Below, piece by piece: positions 24,722 through 58,078 of a DNA stretch of 64,000 nt (positions are counted from its first letter, which is position 1; every line of letters begins with the position of its first letter). The translations under genes were made by a program, and so were the position numbers. This DNA is from an uncultured Spirochaetota bacterium (GTDB lineage: Bacteria; Spirochaetota; Brevinematia; Brevinematales; JAOACQ01): positions 192,001 through 256,000 of the forward strand of contig CAWIGG010000005.1 in NCBI GenBank assembly GCA_963835575.1. The letters are read 5' to 3'. Below the pieces are notes generated by a model. The model searched no databases, was not told the DNA's origin, and worked only from the letters and a program-made list of their open reading frames with translations.

Positions 24722-26643
24722 GTGCGCCCGGCAGGGCGCACGTTCTTGGAGGTTAAAGTCCTCTATGCACCCGGTAAGGGGAATCCCTCACCAGTTTGTG
24801 AACTTCTCCGGGCAGCCGGACAAACTGGTGAGGGACAGACGGCAAGGGTGTCCGCCGTGAGGCGGAATCTGAAGGAAGCCGGAGGCAAAACGCTGGCCTG
24901 ACGAACAGAAACCGCAAATAAGGCGTTTATGTTGGATAAGACGGCCAATATCGTTAAAGTCCGATACTTACACGGAAAACGTAGGCGTAAATGCGGCAGG
25001 TATAAGCGGGAAGGAACGAGCGTATTACCCGGGGAGATCTGGAAATCCGCTACATATTAGCTATTGTCATTGAAAGGTGATGAGAGGGATTTTCAGAAGT
25101 CGGCAGAAGCCATAGTAGCTTCTTGACCGGAAGTGAAGGGCAGAACCAAAATGTAGGAGTACCGCTATGAATCCTGATACGGTAATTTGCGCAGAAGCGA
25201 ATGAAGACCATTTGGCTTTGACAGAAAATAGGGACGGAATCCCGAAGAAGAGTCAAAGTGCGTGTATCCGTACAGAGAGGCAAAGAAGGAGTACACCGGA
25301 TGAAAACAATCTAATCGAGCATCTGGTCAAACGCGAGAACATGCTGGAAGCCTATCACAGAGTGGTAAGCAGCAAAGGCTCGGCGGGAATTGACGGAGTA
25401 ACGGTCGAAAGAATGAAAGATGACGTTAATAACCGGTGGGCTGAAATCAAAGTCAAATTGCTGGAAGGAAGATACAAACCGAAGGCGGTAAAAGGAGTGC
25501 AAATTCCGCAAACGAATGGCGGGGTTCGTCAATTGGGAATCCCGACGGTAATGGATCGACTGATACAGCAAGCATTTTATCAGGTGCTGAGTCCAATCTT
25601 CGAACCGGGATTTTCGGAATTGAGTTATGGCTTTCGTCCCGGAAAAAGGGCACAACAAGCCATAGCGAAGTCAAGAGAATATCAGGAGACCGGGAAACGA
25701 TGGGTTGTAGATATGGATTTAGCGAAATTTTTCGATGAAGTTGACCACGATATCCTAATAGCGAGGATAAAGCGAAAAGTCAGGGATAAGAAAATCCTGA
25801 AACTGATTGCCTCGTTTCTCAAAGCCGGAATGATGACGGATAATAAAATCACGGCGAGGAAAAAGGGAACACCACAAGGTGGAAATCTGTCTCCATTATT
25901 AGCGAATATTATACTGGATGACCTTGACAAGGAATTAGAACAAAGAGGACATAGCTTTTGCCGGTATGCTGATGACTGCAATATATACGTTAAAAGCAGG
26001 AAAGCCGGAGAAAGAGTGATGGACTCGATATCCAGATTTGTTGAGGAAAAGTTGAAGCTGAAAGTGAATCGTGATAAAAGCGCCGCAGCAAGGCCGTGGG
26101 AAAGAAAATTTCTCGGTTACTCATTTACAAGTGAGAAGAAAACAAGGATTCGGGTAGCAATGGAATCGAAAGAAAAACTCAAGAAGAATCTGAAAGAAGT
26201 GTTCAGGAAAGTACAGGGACGAAATCTGAAAGAATTCATCAGGAAAGAATTAAACCCAAAAATTCGCGGATGGATAAATTATTTTATCATTGCGAATGTA
26301 AAAGATTTTACTGACGATATGGATGGATTCGAAGGAAACTACGATGTGCGCTATGGAAACAATGGAAAAGACCCTGGACAAGAAGAAAGCGGCTGATTGA
26401 AGCTGGGCTAAAAGAAGAGCAAGCAGTGGCAAGTACTTTCAACCAGAGAGGCTCGTGGTGGAATTCCGGGGCAAAACATATGAATCTTGTCTTTCCGAAG
26501 AAATACTTTGATAGTATGGGTCTTGTATCAATGCTGGATACGATTTGTAATTATCAGAAATTAAATTTTGGAACCGCCGTATACGGAACCGTACGTACGG
26601 TGGTGTGAGAGGTCGGCGGGTGTGAACCCGCCTCCTACTCGAT
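24722..26643 (+). mobile_element. Group II intron, class IIC
   Basis: 5' GTGCGCCCGG right after a terminator; domain V GAACCGCCGTATACGGAACCGTACGTACGGTGGTG at 26571; domain VI and 3' end CCTACTCGAT. Confidence 0.93.
25167..26608 (+). pseudogene. ltrA: Intron-encoded reverse transcriptase/maturase, frameshifted in domain X near 26330
   Basis: LGIPTVMDRLIQQA, SYGFRPG, GTPQGG, RYADD; the alternative frame continues WIRRKLRCALWKQWKRP...; no endonuclease domain. Confidence 0.88.
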
Positions 26644-52378: not shown

Positions 52379-53132
52379 GAATTCTTTTTCATAATATCCG
52401 ATTGTTCACGCGGATTTTCAAGATTACAGCAGATTTTGAGGATTTAGTTTTGTGGGGAGGGTCTTGATGAGAGGAAGATTCCTGGTTGTTTGGAGATAGA
52501 ATCGGGGTTGAAGGTGGCTTCGCCTGATTGACAGTGGATTTTGATTGAGAATCACTTCTTGATTTTATTAAAGCTTATTTATCGACCCCAATTTCACGCG
52601 GATTCCACGGATTTTGGCGGATTTTAAGGATTTAGTTTATTTAAAGATGCATTCTAAAATAAATCGGTTCCTTACTGTTATTAGTGCGTTTCGGGGATTA
52701 ACAGGATGGCACCCTTCGATATTACTCAGGGTAAACTCCGGCGGGAAGGAGAACGGACGAGGTAATCCGCGAAGGCACGCGAAGAGACGCGAAGGGGATG
52801 GATTTTGAATTTCGATTCTTTATAAAAGCATTTCATACCTTTTTTTATTCTGGCGCTTTTTAACGGGGGTTTTGGGGTGGGCTTCGCCCGGCAGACAGAA
52901 GATTTTGATTGAGAATCCCTTCTTGGTTTATTAAAGCCTATTGATCGACCCCAATTTCACGCGGATTTTCGCGGATTAGGACGGATGCTTCGGCTTCGCT
53001 CAGCACAAGTTTTGGAAGATTTAGTTTTATTAACCTGATTTGTTTACTCGATGGCTGGAAATGTTAGGGGAATGAGGAGGGATGGGGGAGCAGACACGAA
53101 TTGGCACAAATTGGAATATTTTCACGTGAATA

Positions 53133-53480
53133 CTAAATCTGATTACGATTACCTCGCTCAAATATACAAGTCATTCCTTTAAACAAATTATTTTTATATA
53201 TAGTAATATTATTTCTTATCTTGAATTGAGATTCATTTATAATAATAGGATGAATCAACATTTTATTATTCTTTGAAATATTATATATCATGGAGATTAT
53301 ATCAACATCATTAATTTCATCATATAAGACCACCAAAATATCTATATCTGAATCTCTTCTATAATAATATGCTTGACTACCAAGTAGATATATTTTTTTT
53401 ATCTCAGACTTTGCTTGTGCACTTTCTTCAATTTCTTTTATTATGCTCTTTAATTCTTCTGGGATATTTTTTGATTTCAT
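53133..53480 (-). CDS. Minimal nucleotidyltransferase (MNT) domain protein
   Basis: IYLLGSQA...DSDIDILVV (GS...DxD). Confidence 0.85.
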   Translation of the reverse strand: MKSKNIPEELKSIIKEIEESAQAKSEIKKIYLLGSQAYYYRRDSDIDILVVLYDEINDVDIISMIYNISKNNKMLIHPIIINESQFKIRNNITIYKNNLFKGMTCIFERGNRNQI

Positions 53481-53769
53481 CCACTAACTCCCTTATTTTA
53501 AGTTGCTGTTCAGACCTGTTTAATTCAAGCCGTTTTTCCAGAGATTTTCTATAATCAATAAATTCTTTAATCGCCTGACTAAAGTAATGATCTTCCATCT
53601 GATTTTTATTCAGATTATCTTTCCGTTTTATTTCTTCCAATTGATTATAGTTTTCTTCAATATTGTTGTATCCAGCCACAATATTTTTCCTTAGCTTAGC
53701 CACGATATTTTTCCAATAATAATAATAAAAAAGACGGGATAAATTTCCCGGCCAATTAGTCATTTCCAT
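53428..53769 (-). CDS. Small helical hypothetical protein
   Basis: Overlaps both the ATPase stop and the MNT start (translational coupling). Confidence 0.55.
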   Translation of the reverse strand: MEMTNWPGNLSRLFYYYYWKNIVAKLRKNIVAGYNNIEENYNQLEEIKRKDNLNKNQMEDHYFSQAIKEFIDYRKSLEKRLELNRSEQQLKIRELVDEIKKYPRRIKEHNKRN

Positions 53770-54557
53770 TCTGATTTTGCTTGATCAAATATAAGATCAT
53801 CTACAATTTTTTTGCCATTTGACATAGCTGCTAAAAGGAGTGTAGTGCAGATTCGATTTATTATTCTTGGAATTCCAGAAGATTCGTCATGTATTTTAGA
53901 TATGACTGAATCCGTGAATATAGCTGCGGTACTTCCTGCTATATTTAAATGATGCCGTATATAACCACAGCTATCTTCTAATAGCATTCCTTCCAAATGA
54001 AACTTTACAGTAATTCGCTGCCTTAATGCTTCATTTTCCAAACCCGCAAACCTTTGCATAAGTAGTTTATGGCCTGAAAAAATAAAGTTAACAAGAGATC
54101 TGGTGTCAAAATCAAAATTTGAAAGTAACCTTATCTCTTCCAAAATAAAACCCGGAAGATTTTGAGCTTCATCCAGAATTATAACCGGCGTTATCTTTTT
54201 GATCATAGCTAATTCCCTAAGTGTTTTTTTTAGAATATTACGACATTCACCAGAGCTATATACCGGTCGAACTTGGAACTCTGACAATATAGTTCGATAG
54301 AAATCTTGTTTTTTATCAAAAGCTATATTCAGATAAACAGACTGATGTGTATTAGGATTCATTGAAGAAGTGAAAAATCGCAGGGCTGTACTCTTACCAC
54401 TTCCAACTGGACCAGTAAGTAGAAAAAAACCTCCTTCCTCCAGGAAATATTTTAACCTATGTCTGAGATTTTCAAAATCTTTCCATAAAAATGCTTCTTT
54501 CTCTGAAATATCTCGAGAGAATGGTGTTCGAATAAATCCATAATATTGGTTAAGCAT
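53760..54557 (-). CDS. ExeA-like AAA ATPase (transposition helper)
   Basis: YYGF.RTPFS, LTGPVGSGKST, IILDEAQNL, LRQRI, GIPRIINRIC. Confidence 0.9.
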   Translation of the reverse strand: MLNQYYGFIRTPFSRDISEKEAFLWKDFENLRHRLKYFLEEGGFFLLTGPVGSGKSTALRFFTSSMNPNTHQSVYLNIAFDKKQDFYRTILSEFQVRPVYSSGECRNILKKTLRELAMIKKITPVIILDEAQNLPGFILEEIRLLSNFDFDTRSLVNFIFSGHKLLMQRFAGLENEALRQRITVKFHLEGMLLEDSCGYIRHHLNIAGSTAAIFTDSVISKIHDESSGIPRIINRICTTLLLAAMSNGKKIVDDLIFDQAKSEWK

Positions 54558-55917
54558 TAGAATCCTCCTTTTTTATTCTGCTGAAATCAATTTGCCGTCT
54601 CTCTTTTCTAGAAATTTCTAATTCTTTTTGTTTCAGCCTCGAAAAGAATTCCATAGATGATTGCCTTATGATAGATACTGCTGTCTTTTTTTCTTCTGGA
54701 ATATTGCGGAAAACAGGATTTTTTAAATCCCGCGGAAGTGCAGTCTCTGAATATTTGTTTTCTGAATATATAAATACTTTCGACATATCGAAGGGATCAT
54801 ATCGAACTTCAACTTCAGTCCCAAGAAACACATGATTATTAAGACAATAAGTATTCCCATTCAACTTAATACTCCCGTCGGAAGGGTGGACTTTCCGTTT
54901 TTCCCTATATAAAAATATTTCTGTAATTTCCTCGATACTTTCTATAGTCCTTAATTTAACGTTCTTCATATCATTTGTATATCTGTCAAGCGGAGTAACA
55001 CCAATCGCTTGATGTTCCACTCTGTGGTATTCTATTTCTATCCAAGTCTGCAAAAATGAATTCAACTCATCCAAAGAAGATATATCAGCAAATCTGGCTT
55101 CAGACATAAATTCTTTTTGAATACGTTGAAAGAAGCGCTCAATTTTCCCTTTAGACTGAGGAGAATATGGGAGATGGTGCATGAGCCGGATACCGAGCAT
55201 TGCACAAATTCTGCTTAAATGATAAGTATCAAAAATCTTACCGTTATCAACATACAACGCTTTAGGAATGCCCCGTTTTAAAATCGATTTTTTCAAAGTA
55301 TCCTCGAGTCTTGGCAGTTTCTCATCAAAATAAAATTGTGCATGGGGAATAATCCTGGAATAATCGTCAATAAAAGCAAATAGATAAGTCATTTTTCCAC
55401 TACTGCGAAGAGGTATTCCGTCTGTTATATCAGCTTGCCACAATTCATTAATATGTTCTTTTTCAAATGCATAATTAATTCTTTTTTGGCATAAGTTTCT
55501 TCGATTAAGGCCATTATTTTTAAGTACTCGTGAAATTGTTCTCTCTTTGAGAGGTATATTCTGGAATTCCAGTGAAGATTTCAGTAGTTTCATAATTTGT
55601 CTTGCGCTTCGTTTCGGATCCTCTTCTTTCAGATGTTTGATCTTTTTGATAATATTATCAGAATGTTTTTTTGATTTACCTTTGTCTTTTCTGATTTTAC
55701 GATTTAATCCTTCAAAGCCTTTGGATTCATAACGCTTGATGTAATTCAACAAAGTTTTTGACGTTAATTTTTTCTTTATTGAACCGGGAATATTCTGTTC
55801 CTCATTAACAATATTCCGAATAATATTCTGACGCTCCTTTTTATCTTCTATGTGAATCAACCGTGAAATAAGACCAAATTTAAATAAAGACTTTCTCATT
55901 TTCTCATCATCTTCCAT
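54550..55917 (-). CDS. DDE integrase/transposase (rve core plus Mu-type C-terminal domain)
   Basis: LWQADIT, FIDDYSR, LYVDNGK, KGKIERFF, VEVRYDPFD. Confidence 0.92.
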   Translation of the reverse strand: MEDDEKMRKSLFKFGLISRLIHIEDKKERQNIIRNIVNEEQNIPGSIKKKLTSKTLLNYIKRYESKGFEGLNRKIRKDKGKSKKHSDNIIKKIKHLKEEDPKRSARQIMKLLKSSLEFQNIPLKERTISRVLKNNGLNRRNLCQKRINYAFEKEHINELWQADITDGIPLRSSGKMTYLFAFIDDYSRIIPHAQFYFDEKLPRLEDTLKKSILKRGIPKALYVDNGKIFDTYHLSRICAMLGIRLMHHLPYSPQSKGKIERFFQRIQKEFMSEARFADISSLDELNSFLQTWIEIEYHRVEHQAIGVTPLDRYTNDMKNVKLRTIESIEEITEIFLYREKRKVHPSDGSIKLNGNTYCLNNHVFLGTEVEVRYDPFDMSKVFIYSENKYSETALPRDLKNPVFRNIPEEKKTAVSIIRQSSMEFFSRLKQKELEISRKERRQIDFSRIKKEDSNA

Positions 55918-55991: not shown

Positions 55992-56609
55992 TTACCCGGA
56001 ATCCAGACTTAAAAGCTTCTTTCCAGAGCAGAAGCTATAAATATAATTCAAAAAATAGTATTTCTCAGACTCAAGAATAGGACCAAAAAGGTACTTTTTG
56101 TGATATATTACACAGAGTTTATCTAAAATGTTAAATAGGATGTTTAATTTATCTATATTAGAATTCTGATCAGGATAAATGTCAGGAATTTTTGTAGAGC
56201 TATCAAGTTCAATTATAAGTTTTGATAAAGTTTTTATTAAATCATCGCATTGTTTCATTAGACAATTGAAATAATTCCGGAAAGTTGAAAGGTTATTAAA
56301 ATGAGTGTCATAATATTTCCAAATAGTTTCTATTTTTTCAAATTTCATATAATGGTTTTGAATCAACCCCAAAAATATGTTAACACATCTTCTTTTTCTG
56401 GAAAGAAGGTATGGCGGAATTACAGAAATTGTTTCACTTTTTTTCCCTGATTCCAAAGGATAATAGAAACGAATAACATCAGTACTAATAGGATATTTTC
56501 TAGGGTATGTGTCATTATATTTATAACCAGGGTGGTCAATTAAAAATCTTTTTTCAACATTTTCTCTTGTATAATCCTCTGGATAAAAATAAAGGCCAAC
56601 TTCTTGCAT
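55992..56609 (-). CDS. Hypothetical protein in the position of DUF6431-type accessory genes
   Basis: Low-GC ORF upstream of the integrase with YPRK...IRFY...TISVIPPYL resembling DUF6431-type proteins; start MQEV inferred. Confidence 0.6.
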   Translation of the reverse strand: MQEVGLYFYPEDYTRENVEKRFLIDHPGYKYNDTYPRKYPISTDVIRFYYPLESGKKSETISVIPPYLLSRKRRCVNIFLGLIQNHYMKFEKIETIWKYYDTHFNNLSTFRNYFNCLMKQCDDLIKTLSKLIIELDSSTKIPDIYPDQNSNIDKLNILFNILDKLCVIYHKKYLFGPILESEKYYFLNYIYSFCSGKKLLSLDSG

Positions 56610-56646
56610 TGATTCCAATCCATCACTTATATTTCCAGTAGCCCAT

Positions 56647-57232
56647 AATGACTGACATTGACAGTCATTTTTCAAGTATTGCTAGTTTGTGTCCTCTGAG
56701 ATGTGATGGATTTAAATCATTCACAGATAAAATCTGTCTTTTTTAAAGCAACTCTGAAATAACAGAATATGATGCTATTTTCATAAAACAATGAAAAATA
56801 ACAACCATCGCTTTTTTCAGACATAATATTAGACATAATGAGGACACAATACTAGCAGCTAAGGGAAATATAAGGTAGGGAATTGGAAACCAATCCCTAA
56901 TTTTGCCGGCAGCAGAAGCTACCGGATTTTTTTAGAAGAGTTATATAATAACCCTTCTCTAAATGACACGTTTTCATAAGAAAAGTGTCTTAAAAATAAA
57001 ATGAAAGCTAGATTATTAAGCTTCCATTTTGTGCTGCTTATAGCAGCAATGTGTCGTAATGCTCAACCATAAGAAAAAGTGAATCGTTTCATAGGTCATA
57101 TTCATTATTTGCTCAACTCAATGTCAACCCGGCATGATATTGTCAAGCTGATTTAAGGGAACAAGAGTCAAGCATTGCAAAAATAATGAGTAAGAATAAA
57201 ACCTATTCCAACAAACCCGTGATTTTCCCTTA
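56647..57232 (-). ncRNA. Candidate large structured non-coding RNA/leader
   Basis: More than 10 stems including long-range closing helices; most plus-strand mismatches are C.A (G.U on minus). Confidence 0.5.
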
Positions 57233-57370
57233 ATTACACAGGAAACTGACTAACGACGTAATTAAATTATCGGTTTTGACCAAAAGGATTATTAGATCAT
57301 ATTGATTACATTAAAAGTTAAATATCCCGAATAGACATGTTCGACAGAAGTAATAATATGGATTTATATT

Positions 57371-58078
57371 TTAACTTCTAAATAAAGTAATAGATTCACT
57401 AAAGTAATTAGCATTAGGGATTATTTGTTTCCATATTTTATCATTTGTAGATGAAGTTGGTATTGAAAATACACCTGAAGCTCCTATTACATAACTCCAT
57501 TTGTTTGAAGGAAGTTCACCAACACCTCTTATATAGAATACTAAATTTTTCTTAAAACCTAATGCTTTCTTTGTGTCTTTTACTAGAATAGCACTCGGAA
57601 TATTTCTTGTTTTTAGAAGCACAATTGCAGGAAGAGGAGATCTAATTAACAGTTCGCCTATAATAGGAGGAAGGTCTCCTTTTATTTTTACTTTCTTGTC
57701 ATCAATAATAGTATCATTTTCCAATTGTTTTAAAAGATCAAACTTATTAAAATCAGGAGTTCTGCATATATCAAAATCATCAAGATATATTGATCCATCA
57801 ATATTTCTTTCTTCACTCGTTTCCTCTGTCAAGTACTTATTTACCATATCGTAAATCAATTTCAGAGCTGTATCAGTATTATCAGTATTTATATTTACTT
57901 GTAAAAGATTTAAATAATTTTTTAAATCTTCAATATCCCAGATAACACTGTATTTCCTATCCATTACATAACCCGAGGTTTCTCCATAGCTCTTCTTTTG
58001 AACATCTGTCCAAAAAGCCAAAGCGGCGATATCAATAATTAATCTTGGTTCAATTTGAGATTCCATGAATTCCTCCAA
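57371..58078 (-). CDS. Low-GC hypothetical protein
   Basis: ~230-aa ORF, SD GGAGG before MESQ. Confidence 0.65.
   Translation of the reverse strand: MEEFMESQIEPRLIIDIAALAFWTDVQKKSYGETSGYVMDRKYSVIWDIEDLKNYLNLLQVNINTDNTDTALKLIYDMVNKYLTEETSEERNIDGSIYLDDFDICRTPDFNKFDLLKQLENDTIIDDKKVKIKGDLPPIIGELLIRSPLPAIVLLKTRNIPSAILVKDTKKALGFKKNLVFYIRGVGELPSNKWSYVIGASGVFSIPTSSTNDKIWKQIIPNANYFSESITLFRS

Follow-up and report, generated by a model that had tools for sequence, protein, structure and literature searches.

A folded region of about 620 nt before the mobility genes of a 52-kb bacterial transposon, tentatively read as a repressive RNA leader

What is the role of a densely folded, apparently non-coding stretch of DNA that lies directly before the mobility genes of a transposon? 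The question is raised by a locus in a 64,000-nt stretch of DNA from an uncultured Spirochaetota bacterium (the window). A first-pass annotation had described the segment 56647..57232 as the head of the transposon and had suggested a guide or scaffold RNA, a regulatory leader, or a folded single-stranded DNA end. The regulatory leader is still the best reading. With a probability of roughly 0.4, we propose that the region is a long repressive RNA leader of the ORF1, transposase and ATPase genes. The features on which the argument depends are collected in Table 1.

Table 1. Coordinates of the structured region, its predicted parts and the surrounding transposon (window positions unless stated otherwise).
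Feature	Position	Strand	Remarks
Whole structured non-coding region	56617..57233	-	about 620 nt; occurs once in the genome
ORF1 translation-start leader	56610..56643	-	paired in predicted fold B
Side hairpin	56647..56669	-	8 bp, predicted
Domain 1	56680..56857	-	closed by predicted 7- and 10-bp helices
Switch segment	56860..56874	-	predicted partner 57224-57232 (fold A) or 56626-56643 (fold B)
Comb of six hairpins	56876..57048	-	most stable part of the region, predicted
Long arm	57084..57214	-	predicted helices 57091-57097/57200-57206, 57102-57109/57182-57189, 57110-57119/57165-57174
Orphan-family gene	57371..58066	-	231 aa; upstream of the region, same strand
ORF1	55992..56609	-	205 aa; DUF6431-like by indirect evidence
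DDE transposase	54550..55917	-	455 aa; rve, Mu-transpos_C, HTH_32
AAA_22 (ExeA-like) ATPase	53760..54557	-	265 aa
Transposon right end	53667..53748	+	TGT terminus and three 17-bp sites at 53674, 53698 and 53732
Partner (left) end	G000:C5:297751-297808		beyond the window; two sites
5-bp target duplication	53662..53666		repeated past the far end
Interrupted host gene, 3' part	53428..53666	-	

The dense structure noted at first sight withstands calculation. Positions 56647..57232 fold with minimum free energies of -161 kcal/mol on the plus strand and -184.9 kcal/mol on the minus strand (z -8.6 and -9.4), and none of 100 dinucleotide shuffles folds as well on either strand. The signal does not extend beyond about 56600-57250 and is strongest in the comb, where a 150-nt window reaches z -8.1. 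As had also been stated, the region is almost free of open reading frames: the longest stop-to-stop frame entirely within it has 62 aa. The fold is thus real as a prediction, well beyond chance. A fold computed with DNA parameters reaches z -8.3, so that RNA and single-stranded DNA are indistinguishable by energy alone. Stem mismatches had been said to favour the strand of the operon. The direction of this lean stands, but its strength does not: 11 single-pair interruptions are G·U on the minus strand and 4 on the plus strand, a weak preference (one-sided binomial p about 0.06) that lends weak support to an RNA on the minus strand, which is that of the operon.

Most of the helices drawn by eye reappear in the predicted fold. 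Domain 1 closes where expected, by 56680-56686/56851-56857 and 56687-56696/56840-56849. All six hairpins of the comb are predicted at their assigned places, the third of them narrower (56934-56958) than had been thought (~56931-56963), and the three helices of the long arm also form as described. The arm helix 57110-57119/57165-57174 contains a tandem G·U, and the arm tip (57120-57164) is mostly open. At 56653-56661, the loop of the side hairpin is complementary to 57118-57126 in this tip; the match is not significant alone, and the two elements may form a pseudoknot. Seven perfect long-range complements of at least 9 nt occur in the region, compared to 1.3 +/- 1.2 in shuffles (one of 300 as high), and 12 of 543 natural AT-rich windows of the genome also reach seven. 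Of these complements, three cross the nested fold, as one to three do in most such natural windows, and we take them as leads to possible pseudoknots, not as evidence.

The helix that had been assigned to close domain 2 (56860-56868/57224-57232) fared differently. It is predicted when the region is folded as first delimited, but its probability drops to about 0 once the ORF1 leader is included. Structure reaches beyond the earlier limit at 56647, to about 56626-56617. In the presence of the leader, a helix 56626-56636/56864-56874 is predicted with a probability of 0.98 and its extension 56639-56643/56857-56861 with 0.90, which excludes the domain-2 closing helix. This displacing helix comprises 11 + 5 bp and stops 17 nt short of the ORF1 start. 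In snapshots of the growing transcript, the closing helix has probabilities of 0.82-0.98 as long as the 3' end lies between 56855 and 56645, and of 0.02-0.00 past ~56630. Constrained ensembles give -211.3 kcal/mol for the fold with the closing helix (fold A) and -216.9 kcal/mol for the fold with the displacing helix (fold B), a gap of 5.6 kcal/mol. The mean unpaired probability of the 21 nt around the start (56625-56605) is 0.41 in fold A versus 0.26-0.29 in fold B. The 30 nt that precede the ORF1 start are matched perfectly by three separate complements of 11, 10 and 7 nt. Over 10 nt, 56703-56712 within domain 1 is complementary to 56617-56626, immediately upstream of this start. These calculations predict two mutually exclusive folds, the later of which would pair the ORF1 leader.

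To place the region in its element, we located the right end of the transposon by comparison with L011, the closest relative with DNA among the matches listed. The element extends from 53667 to G000:C5:297808 and measures 52,142 bp, with the same 5 bp flanking both ends. The region is therefore not the head of the transposon. It lies inside, between the 231-aa gene and ORF1, with the ends 3 kb and 48.6 kb away. The description as element-encoded holds in the sense of location within these boundaries. An end-site matrix built from nine sites (the five of this element and four of L011) scores the five true sites at 19.7-26.4, first in the element, a ranking that is partly circular; the region scores 0.9 at most, a value that this circularity does not affect. 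No matching end was found near ORF1. Excision of the 52,142-bp element together with one copy of the duplication restores an open frame of 238 codons; because three of ten tested offsets keep the frame, this is supporting evidence only. The 113-aa "ORF" at 53428-53769 is a chimera of the host gene with the transposon end. Two other candidates for ends were rejected: the pair 53062/57240 has a 5-bp duplication and no end-type sites, and by our estimate chance would yield about one pair of this kind; at C4:701579, a 24-mer that resembles an end falls within a gene and lacks a partner.

The mobility module, the structured region, the orphan gene and the 600 nt at the far end share a GC content of 26-34%, compared to 42% for the genome. 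The 48 kb in the middle are mostly host-like in GC, partly duplicated elsewhere in the genome, and contain nested IS elements; this cargo may have moved with the element or entered it later. By ORF listing, through which the 48-kb cargo is known (family scans cover the window's own ORFs), it contains metal-handling-, redox- and two-component-like genes as well as IS5-like and IS21-like elements. Three Rfam models report a group II intron at 24851-26643. Copies of dispersed genome-wide repeats occupy 52400-53030 beside an IS66 element, and a minimal nucleotidyltransferase (PADLOC PDC-S09-like) is encoded at 53133-53480, just outside the element and downstream of the interrupted gene.

The three genes of the module assign the element to a family. 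ORF1 itself has no Pfam match and no relative in a word-indexed search. DUF6431 occurs in 26-64% of the members of its language-model neighbours, and five of six positional equivalents match DUF6431, two of them above the cut-off; this indirect evidence suggests that ORF1 is DUF6431-like. The genes that follow, rve and then AAA_22, together with paired TGT ends and a target duplication, identify a DUF6431-rve-AAA three-gene transposon. The transposase stays below the curated cut-offs for IS481, ISNCY, IS3 and IS21. DUF6431 is barely mentioned in the literature that we searched, and the mapped 52-kb element indicates that this little-described family can bound large cargo.

Relatives of the element are usually compact. 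Among 94 loci searched for paired ends, we hand-picked 29 with TGT at both predicted ends. ORF1 starts at most 260 nt from the left end in 24 of these, and at 371, 425, 481, 819 and 2681 nt in the rest. L011, with a transposase 66% identical to that of the element and perfect 24-bp ends, is counted among the 29 at 114 nt and carries a frameshift. Another compact relative occurs four times in one genome, flanked by 4-5-bp duplications, at sites unrelated to one another. These observations show that the family does not require a 600-nt RNA. The transposases of the compared relatives other than L011 are only 29-37% identical to that of the element. About 45 closer transposases (50-69% identical) are known as proteins, and the DNA of the sub-lineage is represented here almost solely by L011: no transposase of the close clade with DNA was found in GTDB contigs, viral contigs, plasmids or five genome samples.

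Structure before ORF1 does recur in the family. Of 26 leaders of relatives that were folded, five reach z -3 or lower; the 819-nt leader has z -0.9. In L011 a stem is predicted over the bases before the ORF1 start, in a leader with z only -1.8. All 13 aligned loci of a distant subfamily have a hairpin immediately upstream of the ORF1 start (alignment A4 columns 341-371, e.g., L032 and L059), with 93.7% of cells paired and two of eleven pairs changed on both sides (slid controls, 26-44%). This hairpin has no sequence in common with the region, and since the loci are related and the hairpin was picked by eye, they show a habit of the family, not homology. The 371-nt left-end leader at L056:14-400 contains an insert that folds with z -5.6 and does not match the covariance model of the comb.

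How might a repressive leader operate at this locus? The region is probably co-transcribed with ORF1, the transposase and the ATPase genes as a long folded leader that would dampen their expression. During transcription the 5' end of the RNA is predicted to pair with 56860-56868, giving fold A. The emerging ORF1 leader would then capture the same segment and shift the RNA to fold B, predicted to be about 6 kcal/mol better, with a more paired start region. Since the left end is 48.6 kb away, rather than 100-260 nt before ORF1 as in compact relatives, we infer that the operon is reached by transcripts arriving from the cargo side. The fold would stop these transcripts from being translated freely, and ORF1 and the genes behind it would be repressed. 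Hypothetically, a protein, stress or a change in transcription speed that holds fold A would lift the block. The absence of a terminator-like site between the 231-aa gene and ORF1, the 11 to 4 lean of the G·U pairs and the three complements before the start codon count for a leader. Promoter-like sites in the region, present at chance frequency (15 versus 13.8 +/- 3.4), count against it, as does the modest predicted change in accessibility (0.41 versus 0.29). Moreover, a many-branched fold of 620 nt is far more than the occlusion of a start codon needs, no role in it is evident for the comb and the arm, and two exclusive helices can occur by chance in one AT-rich sequence, as the 12 of 543 natural windows indicate. 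If the leader reading is correct, the region illustrates how an insertion sequence, once compact and now expanded to 52 kb, holds its mobility genes in check.

The searches for homologues also weigh against the leader reading. The first-pass annotation had recognised no named RNA family, and a covariance scan with Rfam 15, whose models include OLE, ROOL, GOLLD, group I and II introns and riboswitches, likewise found none at gathering score (best E 0.39 in a permissive scan). ARAGORN found no tRNA or tmRNA gene in the window. BLAST against 60 related genomes returned one 28-nt match only, and blastn against phages and plasmids gave best E values of 0.2 and 0.05, respectively. In related transposon loci, blastn and nhmmer detected only the window's own copies and the same 28-nt match. 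A single-sequence covariance model of the comb had no match in 98 loci. Its two partial matches in 100 related genomes were rejected as chance, one overlapping a coding sequence and the other having several broken helices, and six matches of the closing-helix pattern in viral contigs lay mostly in or across predicted genes and lacked sequence similarity; their large z values, calculated against only 8 mononucleotide shuffles, were discarded. Because no homologue was found, no pair in the region is backed by covariation. The literature searched, seen through listings, holds no description of such an RNA, which supplementary lists of candidate RNAs could contain.

The region might instead be an independent large structured RNA, akin to ROOL, GOLLD or OLE in kind and not in family, which we regard as rather unlikely. 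It would be native cargo, perhaps a partner of the 231-aa protein, with its 5' end at 57225-57233 pseudoknotted with 57153-57161 in the arm tip and fold B as its sole native fold. Its size, nine predicted hairpin loops in one 370-nt window and stems that contain G·U pairs would suit such an RNA, as would the excess of long-range complements over shuffles; the three that cross the nested fold match what natural AT-rich windows contain. Among 20 top-folding intergenic loci of the genome that were tested, the region is the only one without another BLAST place. The strongly folding intergenic loci at C4:1065808, C4:1055315, C2:726507 and C2:1110547 have merely short matches elsewhere in the genome. 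Low GC is common to region, module and orphan gene (27-33% versus 42% for the genome). Opposed to an independent RNA are the negative searches for a homologue, which covered genomes, transposon loci, phages and plasmids, and the lack of a terminator to mark its 3' end.

The orphan gene itself points in both directions. The 231-aa protein matches nothing in Pfam, NCBIfam or PADLOC. Its relatives number 83, itself excluded; searches of 300 genomes of the phylum and of viral contigs did not detect it. Fusions to DarT (one) and NucS_C (two) among 27 relatives scanned hint at a defence role of the family. A structure model is confident (pLDDT 94) and has two domains, with no Foldseek match and, at a best VIA Z of 6.3, no clear structural match. 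Seven of 50 weak VIA rows are Cas12/TnpB/Fanzor chains, aligned to residues 1-94 with Z 4.3-5.5, within noise. An orphan relative (P0150, 43% identical) and a transposase (P0005, 64% identical) both derive from sources whose longest contig has 22,042 nt. Probably the two lie together on a single contig, in which case the link between gene and module would recur. By contrast, two distant plasmid relatives of the orphan gene are followed by another gene after 90 and 203 nt only, so the orphan family does not need such an RNA. If it is independent, the RNA is a candidate for a new class of large bacterial non-coding RNA tied to an uncharacterised defence-like protein family. A bolder version is quite doubtful: an undescribed class of pseudoknotted RNA of about 620 nt, carried by a cargo-bearing DUF6431-rve-ATPase sub-lineage, might form an RNA-protein module for defence or mobility control with the 231-aa protein while its 3' helix couples folding to translation of the operon.

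It is unlikely, though less so than this combined proposal, that the region is a functionless relic, left by fold-back duplications or decayed miniature elements at the cargo junction, with domain 1 as an imperfect 33-bp inverted repeat. Windows of 370 nt from the region rank 18th and 34th among 2196 intergenic window-strands in the genome, so its fold is strong but not unique; 17 intergenic window-strands fold better, and the other 19 of the 20 top-folding loci tested have further BLAST places in the genome. Strong folding on both strands and as DNA, together with the failure to find a homologue, would also fit a relic. On the other side, BLAST, nhmmer and a covariance model found no second copy in the genome, which is 94% complete; a MITE- or REP-type repeat, which requires multiple copies, was rejected on this ground. 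In addition, inspection of the sequence shows no evident target duplication around domain 1. The sequences of the six hairpins are different, and the mismatches tend towards G·U on one strand.

A guide or scaffold RNA through which ORF1 or the transposase would choose targets, in this sub-lineage only, is very unlikely. The region does lie directly before ORF1 on the same strand, and none of the three module genes was recognised as a target selector, but compact relatives lack room for it and still spread, as L011 with its 114 nt and the four-copy element illustrate. Nor does a segment of the region match the insertion target: exact matches to the target flanks do not exceed 10 nt, and 103 of 500 controls reach at least 10. 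We give next to no credence to the idea that folded single-stranded DNA serves the element as an end or as a substrate for recombination, which the z of -8.3 with DNA parameters would allow, since the true ends lie elsewhere and no end-type sites occur in the region. Double-stranded ends are, moreover, the substrate of DDE transposases whose elements have TGT termini and short duplications.

ISPpu9 reportedly has a structured transposase leader. For its gene content and ends, the element resembles the Tn7-like and IS21/Mu-like cargo transposons, as described in 10.1101/2021.08.23.457393: a DDE transposase with an ATPase, TGT ends, repeated sites and a 5-bp duplication, as well as large cargo, nested IS elements and a defence-like orphan gene. 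What sets it apart is its module, with a DUF6431-like ORF1 and an AAA_22 ATPase around the transposase, and no TniQ/TnsD or TnsA was recognised within these three genes. With ROOL, GOLLD and OLE, as described in PMC12286853, the region shares its size class, a many-branched predicted fold, possible loop-loop contacts and a place in mobile DNA. The resemblance is one of size and complexity only. The region matches no Rfam model, and ROOL and GOLLD are described there as often near tRNA islands, whereas this window contains no tRNA. The closest precedent for a leader is the 5'UTR of IS200 tnpA, whose secondary structure represses the transposase according to PMC4513863. In both cases an RNA structure, predicted in ours, lies over or beside the start codon of a transposition gene and would act by occlusion. 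Unlike the IS200 leader, our region has no known antisense RNA, is predicted to adopt two exclusive long-range folds over some 620 nt, and precedes an accessory gene, not the transposase, inside a large element. If the region is indeed a leader, its switch-like fold is far larger than known transposase leaders.
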